Of a stretch of 64,000 bases of DNA, positions 31,033-31,059 are shown piece after piece. How positions within the stretch are numbered: the first letter of the stretch is position 1; the number at the start of each line of letters is the position of its first letter. Location of the stretch: the NCBI GenBank assembly GCA_041641215.1, contig JBEPYU010000004.1, forward strand, positions 5,847 to 69,846. Reading direction: 5' to 3'. This DNA comes from Thermaceae bacterium. GTDB taxonomy: Bacteria > Deinococcota > Deinococci > Deinococcales > Thermaceae. The notes beneath the pieces are model-generated. The model worked only from the letters and a program-made list of their open reading frames with translations, did no database searches and had not been told where the DNA came from. The position numbers and the translations under genes are program-made.

Positions 31033-31059
31033 TTGACACTTGCAAGACTTGAGTGTCAA
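31033..31059. promoter_or_regulatory. CIRCE-like inverted repeat TTGACACTT-N9-GAGTGTCAA
   Basis: 9-N9-9 palindrome 23 nt upstream of the FmdB-like start (31010) and 26 nt upstream of MTHFS GTG 31085. Confidence 0.55.

Follow-up and report, generated by a model that had tools for sequence, protein, structure and literature searches.

A predicted second HrcA operator in the promoter of a cysteine-free ruc-like gene of a Thermaceae bacterium

The palindrome at positions 31033–31059 of the window (the whole stretch of 64,000 nucleotides analysed here, C4:5847-69846) is most likely, at a probability of roughly 80%, a second HrcA operator, situated in the promoter of a small gene related to ruc of M. 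tuberculosis. Its counterpart lies in the groES leader, and by sequence comparison the genome has exactly two predicted operators of this type, one at the ruc-like gene and one in the groESL leader. We infer that HrcA binds at 31033–31059 and that expression is induced by heat. The HrcA–ruc link, which has so far been shown experimentally only in M. tuberculosis, would thereby extend to a distant, thermophilic phylum, and the view of Ruc-family proteins as core heat-shock proteins would be supported. In overall weight this is a modest, tidy addition, and no surprise.

An earlier sequence-only reading of this DNA had pointed out two palindromes, and both were found where it had placed them, with the sequences it had given. 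In each, two inverted 9-bp arms flank a spacer of 9 bp. The one at 31033–31059, which is not assigned to a strand and is predicted by comparative analysis to be an HrcA-type operator (a Thermales variant of CIRCE), has the form TTGACACTT-N9-GAGTGTCAA, in full TTGACACTTGCAAGACTTGAGTGTCAA. Its sister at 36033–36059 (+) has the form TTGACACTC-N9-GAGCGTCAA, in full TTGACACTCTCGCCCTTTGAGCGTCAA, and begins 10 nt past the −10 element of the groESL promoter. That promoter, TTGACA-17-GATAAT, had also been recognized before; it was located at 35994–36022 (+), matches at 11 of 12 positions, and is followed by groES and groEL (36068–38020, +; Cpn10 and Cpn60). The first palindrome occupies a divergent spacer of 74 bp, as previously described, between the ATG of the small gene (31010, −) and the GTG of a gene for 5-formyltetrahydrofolate cyclo-ligase (MTHFS; 31085, +). 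The gene identities proposed from the sequence were likewise upheld: a Zn_ribbon_8/FmdB-like protein without Cys, SPFH/Band 7, MTHFS, Cpn10 and Cpn60.

When up to two mismatches were allowed, the pattern TTGACACTY-N9-GAGYGTCAA occurred at only these two places in the 64-kb window, and 100 dinucleotide-preserving shuffles gave no match to it. The whole 1.78-Mb assembly (142 contigs, 66.7% G+C, 99.96% complete) contained no third site within three mismatches of TTGACACTC-N9-GAGTGTCAA. A symmetrised weight matrix was derived from 92 orthologous sites; against it, the two palindromes scored 37.8 and 36.9 bits, and the runner-up position in the genome 8.8. The further copies at dnaK, clpB or hrcA that had been expected earlier thus did not appear in either the mismatch or the matrix scan of the genome. 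Across 61 Thermaceae genomes, the core TTGACA-N15-TGTCAA was present in 0–3 copies per genome, and the reversed-pattern control had no occurrence in any of the 61.

The small gene (30774–31010, −) encodes a protein of 78 residues that profiles, an alignment and a structure model identify as a Cys-less member of the Ruc/FmdB (Zn_ribbon_8) family. The profile scores were under the curated cut-offs (29.2 vs 34.4 bits for PF09723, 27.1 vs 31.3 for TIGR02605). Residues 1–57 align gaplessly, with 41% identity, to a canonical CxxC...CxxC member of the family from Chloroflexota. The positions of the zinc ligands are taken by G8, T11, H29 and T32, the sequence 'ETG' occurs in both knuckle regions, and there is no Cys anywhere in the protein. 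Every Deinococcota ruc-like sequence examined is Cys-less, with the zinc ligands replaced in the same way, and public records list the orthologues as 'FmdB family zinc ribbon protein'. A search with the family profile returned 8,981 relatives; among the best 150, all four Cys were kept in 89, and several small groups had lost some or all of them. The gene was present in 61 of 61 Thermaceae and in 20 of 20 other Deinococcota sampled. An AlphaFold model had a pLDDT of about 94 over residues 1–40, which form three strands, and a disordered, acidic tail (residues 56–78, pLDDT <50) rich in Ser, Glu, Lys and Gly. A fold search of the PDB with this model yielded nothing significant, the best E-value being 0.37 for about 40 residues of an MCM N-terminal domain, and the search therefore did not confirm a zinc-ribbon fold.

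[quoted passage not shown] 2020, PMC7448276). Ruc (Rv0991c) consists of an FmdB-type zinc ribbon and a disordered tail that is needed for its chaperone activity; variants in which Cys was replaced by Ser, and which are zinc-free, are active without oxidation, and ruc was found in 100% of 26 Deinococcus-Thermus genomes (PMC7448276). That HrcA operators stand at chaperonin genes and at ruc was thus already known from this species (PMC7448276). The membership of the FmdB-like gene in the Ruc family, a known target of HrcA in M. tuberculosis (PMC7448276), had not entered the sequence-only reading.

The likenesses to that system extend to the very small regulon, in which a single small gene of the FmdB family joins the chaperonin genes, to the overlap of the ruc promoter by the operator, and to the protein itself, with its N-terminal ribbon domain of about 50 residues and its disordered, hydrophilic tail (PMC7448276). 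The present system differs in the phylum, Deinococcota, in the operator sequence, with the half-site TTGACAC instead of the usual CIRCE half-site, and in lacking the redox switch. Unlike Ruc of M. tuberculosis, the present protein is missing all four zinc-binding Cys, and the redox activation described for Ruc therefore cannot operate here; nor was a SigH-type second input, as in M. tuberculosis, identified. By analogy with Ruc, the small protein would be a chaperone, and because the zinc-free Cys-to-Ser variants of Ruc are active without oxidation (PMC7448276), holdase activity of the zinc-free protein is plausible. A naturally Cys-less Ruc would offer a ready test of whether zinc and the redox switch are dispensable.

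The gene that follows on the same strand encodes an SPFH/Band 7 membrane protein (29670–30608, −; PF01145, 8e-38), and the sequence-only reading had proposed that the two genes form a heat-shock-controlled membrane quality-control pair. We considered the possibility that the operator governs a two-gene operon, in which case SPFH would be heat-shock-regulated through HrcA. No U-tract terminator lies between the two genes in the window, and about half of the Thermus-genus loci, as well as most of the Meiothermus-like ones, have SPFH after the ruc-like gene. However, it is missing there in about half of the loci, including those of T. thermophilus-like strains. Directly 3' of the ruc-like stop codon is a 12-bp GC-rich hairpin (30741–30768, −), and in Thermus relatives a T-rich tail comes after the equivalent GC hairpin. 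Within this tail, 6–8 nt before the SPFH ATG, the relatives have a conserved −10 element (TATACT, TATGCT or TATGAT), a distance typical of leaderless mRNA; its candidate counterpart in the window is TATAAT (30617–30622, −), 8 nt before the ATG at 30608. Meiothermus-like loci have CATACT or GATACT before SPFH, and then a Shine-Dalgarno sequence. The spacer between the two genes (30609–30773) measures 165 bp here, whereas most Thermus relatives have about 50 bp, and the 12-bp hairpin is part of a repeat element within it. With SPFH adjacent in only about half of the relatives, a strong hairpin in between and a conserved −10 of its own, the proposed pair was not supported. We regard the shared operon as unlikely; SPFH is probably a separate transcription unit with its own promoter and a leaderless mRNA.

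The element at 31033–31059 was next compared with CIRCE, the operator of HrcA. An hrcA homologue, for which a check had been suggested, is present on contig C98 (C98:2459-2983). All 53 genomes sampled from three families have the gene (PF01628); the families are f1, that of the window, f3, which by source names includes Marinithermus and Oceanithermus, and f4. It was found in none of 68 other genomes of the phylum sampled, including the Deinococcus-like family f2. In three of the four f4 genomes, the groES leader carries canonical CIRCE, TTAGCACTC-N9-GAGTGCTAA. The fourth (G093) has TTGGCACTC..GAGTGCTAA, one f3 genome (G098) has TTGGCACTT..GAGTGCCAA, and the rest of f3, together with f1, has TTGACACTC..GAGTGTCAA. 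The ten f2 genomes examined at groES, in which hrcA is absent, have no such repeat; a HAIR-like element, CTTGAGC-N7-ACTCAA, stands before the −35 element instead. The repeat was present in the groES leader of 10 of 10 hrcA-positive outgroup genomes vs 0 of 10 hrcA-negative ones. Because the series is graded while position and geometry are fixed, the Thermus element is best understood as a derived CIRCE. The lineage half-site TTGACACTC agrees with the consensus TTAGCACTC-N9-GAGTGCTAA at 7 of 9 positions, and the site at 31033 at 13 of 18. The resemblance to CIRCE noted from the window alone is thus borne out by canonical and intermediate forms that share the groES position in hrcA-positive sister families, and the shared regulator suggested at the time is most likely HrcA, whose gene is present in the genome.

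The repressor differs between the same lineages. From general winged-helix topology, we take the SPAxxRY(D/E) stretch of HrcA to be helix 3, the DNA-reading helix. This putative recognition helix reads SPAxxRY(D/E) in f1 and f3 and SSAT(V/I)RN(D/E) in the f4 genomes with canonical CIRCE, as well as in T. maritima HrcA (PDB 1STZ); in G093, which has one TTGGCAC half-site, it reads RSE. Statistically, the joint occurrence with hrcA and the changes in the helix are both weak, since each probably represents one evolutionary event; the pattern of hrcA presence and absence is probably due to a single loss. The comparison nonetheless singles out putative recognition-helix residues of HrcA that may set operator specificity, and it defines a Thermales form of CIRCE that standard-consensus searches would overlook.

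A different transcription factor might bind TTGACA-N15-TGTCAA palindromes, the likeness to CIRCE being convergent. The half-site does depart from CIRCE at 2 of 9 positions, and the evidence that ties the operator to hrcA is correlative. Against such a factor, canonical CIRCE in sister families has the same geometry and occupies the same place in the groES leader, with intermediates that bridge the two forms; genomes that lack hrcA, and only these, lack the repeat; the putative DNA-reading helix of HrcA and the operator have changed in the same lineages; and the tiny regulon matches that of M. tuberculosis HrcA (PMC7448276). We consider this explanation improbable, and HrcA remains the preferred regulator.

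Both arms of the element are conserved at both loci, across six genera. Upstream of groES it was found in 50 of 50 family loci with the 9-N9-9 geometry intact. Upstream of the small gene it was found with three or fewer mismatches in 42 of 50 loci, the exact TTGACA-N15-TGTCAA core in 48 of 50, and the 9-N9-9 geometry was retained in nearly all of the ruc-like loci. In all 28 loci from the genus of the window and genus g3 (L002–L029), the palindrome lies at −49 to −51 from the ATG of the small gene with 0–2 mismatches; in the remaining genera the right arm is weaker (GTTTGTCAA). A column-wise alignment of 28 distinct Thermus loci displayed a clear footprint, with arms conserved at 90–100%, the spacer at 40–70%, and a renewed fall in conservation between the operator and the Shine-Dalgarno sequence. 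Family f3 has the operator upstream of both groES and the ruc-like gene. The ruc-like gene of the hrcA-positive family f4 has no operator upstream, and the HrcA–ruc link is therefore not universal even inside the phylum.

In Deinococcus-like ruc-like loci (L129–L141), which are without hrcA, there is mostly a conserved upstream sequence, TTGCTAGGAT, that resembles an extended −10 element, and no palindrome. This suggests that the ruc-like genes of that group have another mode of control or are constitutively expressed.

The predicted sigma-70-type promoter of the ruc-like gene (31030–31059, −) lies wholly inside the operator. It consists of a −35 element, TTGACA (31059–31054), followed after 18 nt by the −10 element CAAAAT (31035–31030), with an upstream TG at 31038–31037. 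It matches at 10 of 12 positions in addition to the TG, and it is the only sigma-70-like promoter between 29400 and 31800. The sequence TGTCAAAAT or TGTCAATAT after the spacer is conserved generally throughout f1 and f3. The groES operator, by contrast, begins 10 nt past a separate promoter, in the classical leader position. The sequence-only reading had supposed that the operator might serve as a −35 element on either strand; this agrees with the predicted promoter on the minus strand, whose −35 element is the TTGACA of one arm, and not with the plus strand, where the likely −35 element is TTGAGT (31049–31054). Among RNA sequencing runs, none contained the sequence of this organism; those of close relatives that match locus L006 exactly consist of assembled contigs of flat depth and yielded neither transcript ends nor differences in expression.

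Since the two most conserved blocks of the site coincide with a −35 element and an extended −10 element, the palindrome could be nothing but a strong promoter (TTGACA plus the extended −10 TGTCAAAAT), with incidental symmetry and no repressor. However, the groES palindrome lies downstream of a complete, separate promoter and so cannot itself be that promoter, and arm positions 7–9 (CTC and GAG), which fall outside the hexamers, are 90–100% conserved. Moreover, the non-consensus CAA that opens the −10 element is fixed, as dyad symmetry requires. The groES context and the conserved arm positions outside the hexamers led us to reject the promoter-only explanation, which is very improbable. A function of the repeat at the RNA level, for instance as a hairpin that would stabilise the leader or terminate transcription, in place of a role as DNA operator is the least credible explanation and was rejected: the groES repeat does sit in the transcribed leader, but the ruc-like repeat lies almost entirely upstream of the predicted transcription start, and 27 of 28 Thermus-genus groES right arms are GAGCGTCAA or GGGCGTCAA, leaving an A·C mismatch with the left arm TTGACACTC that is conserved without a compensating change, so that base pairing is not the property under conservation.

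On the other side of the operator, the MTHFS gene (31085–31618, +; PF01812, 3e-27; TIGR02727, 117 bits) lies divergently next to the ruc-like gene in nearly all f1 and f3 loci. Its predicted promoter (31049–31087, +) comprises TTGAGT (31049–31054), which lies in the operator, 17 nt, TACCCT (31072–31077), 7 nt and the GTG at 31085, and the arrangement TTGAGT-17/18-TACCCT-6/7-GTG is conserved in the Thermus-genus loci. From this spacing, the MTHFS mRNA is probably leaderless, with its −35 element in the operator arm. On the MTHFS side the arm is extended by AAG, and this triplet is better conserved than its mirror image across the dyad, which fits an extra constraint, since the MTHFS −35 lies in that arm. 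Because the operator overlaps this element, MTHFS may be co-repressed through the same operator; we hold this only tentatively, at somewhat less than even odds.

Together, these observations suggest the following scheme, in which HrcA is again taken as the repressor. The half-site TTGACACTC would have replaced TTAGCACTC in this lineage and would be read by an HrcA with an altered putative recognition helix. HrcA seated on the operator would block RNA polymerase at the ruc-like promoter, and, since that promoter lies wholly inside the operator, should occlude both promoter elements. Heat, or the accumulation of unfolded protein, would inactivate HrcA, and the ruc-like gene would then be expressed together with groESL. 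With the redox switch gone, the ruc-like protein would probably be controlled by transcription only, and the divergent MTHFS gene, whose −35 element is overlapped by the operator, might be repressed along with it. The complete proposal, that the Ruc of Thermales is an always-active, zinc-free holdase switched by a re-specified HrcA through an operator that also gates a leaderless MTHFS, is doubtful as a whole. [quoted passage not shown]

With the classical CIRCE/HrcA system, known from the groE and dnaK operons of B. subtilis and from the T. maritima HrcA structure 1STZ, the present one shares the 9-N9-9 repeat, its place just downstream of the groES promoter, and the conserved winged-helix N-terminus of HrcA with ...PHxSAGRxPT. 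It differs from it in the half-site (TTGACACTC here, TTAGCACTC there), in the putative recognition helix (SPAxxRY(D/E) vs SSATxRN(D/E)), in that dnaK and hrcA are outside the regulon, and in that the second site contains the promoter, whereas the classical operator is in the leader. A search of the accessible literature found nothing relevant on a Thermus HrcA regulon, on TTGACACTC, on FmdB in Thermus or on a Thermus transcription-start map; regulon databases might list the regulon.

A heat-shock repressor system reported for Deinococcus and the actinobacteria is HspR with its operator HAIR (CTTGAGT-N7-ACTCAAG). It resembles the present system in controlling chaperone genes, and the inner part of the Thermus operator does hold CTCAAG/CTTGAG. 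However, the conserved outer blocks TTGACA and TGTCAA are not part of HAIR, and the reading of the inner CTCAAG-N3-CTTGAG as a HAIR element bound by HspR was rejected, since the half-sites stand in the opposite order and are separated by N3 instead of N7. HAIR-like elements were found only in the groES upstream regions of f2 and f4. There, CTTGAG(T/C)-N7-ACTCAA(G/A) lies just upstream of the groES −35 element in f2-type genomes and f4 (L108–L121). At the corresponding place in the window, GCTCAAG alone remains (35983–35989), 4 nt before the groES −35; it may be a relic HAIR half-site.

A third operator of the same type is present in Meiothermus-like genera, about 105 nt upstream of a conserved protein of 128–132 residues with the sequence MASAVKREVWQDVEV...LLPYAG.KSLEA (loci L158–L166, with the site at position 1501 of each; for example G049:C1:2214803-2214829, G037:C3:84398-84424 and G012:C7:812053-812079). 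The protein had no match in Pfam and no homologue in the genome of the window, and may belong to the HrcA regulon as a member not yet described. A conserved motif containing GGAACGG lies downstream of the promoter or operator in two settings: as GCGTGCGGAACGGCAAAAAC in the Deinococcus-like groES leaders L110–L121, and as CGTCTGGAACGGGTTATTTGC before the 131-aa gene at L158–L166. The likeness between the two may be due to chance.
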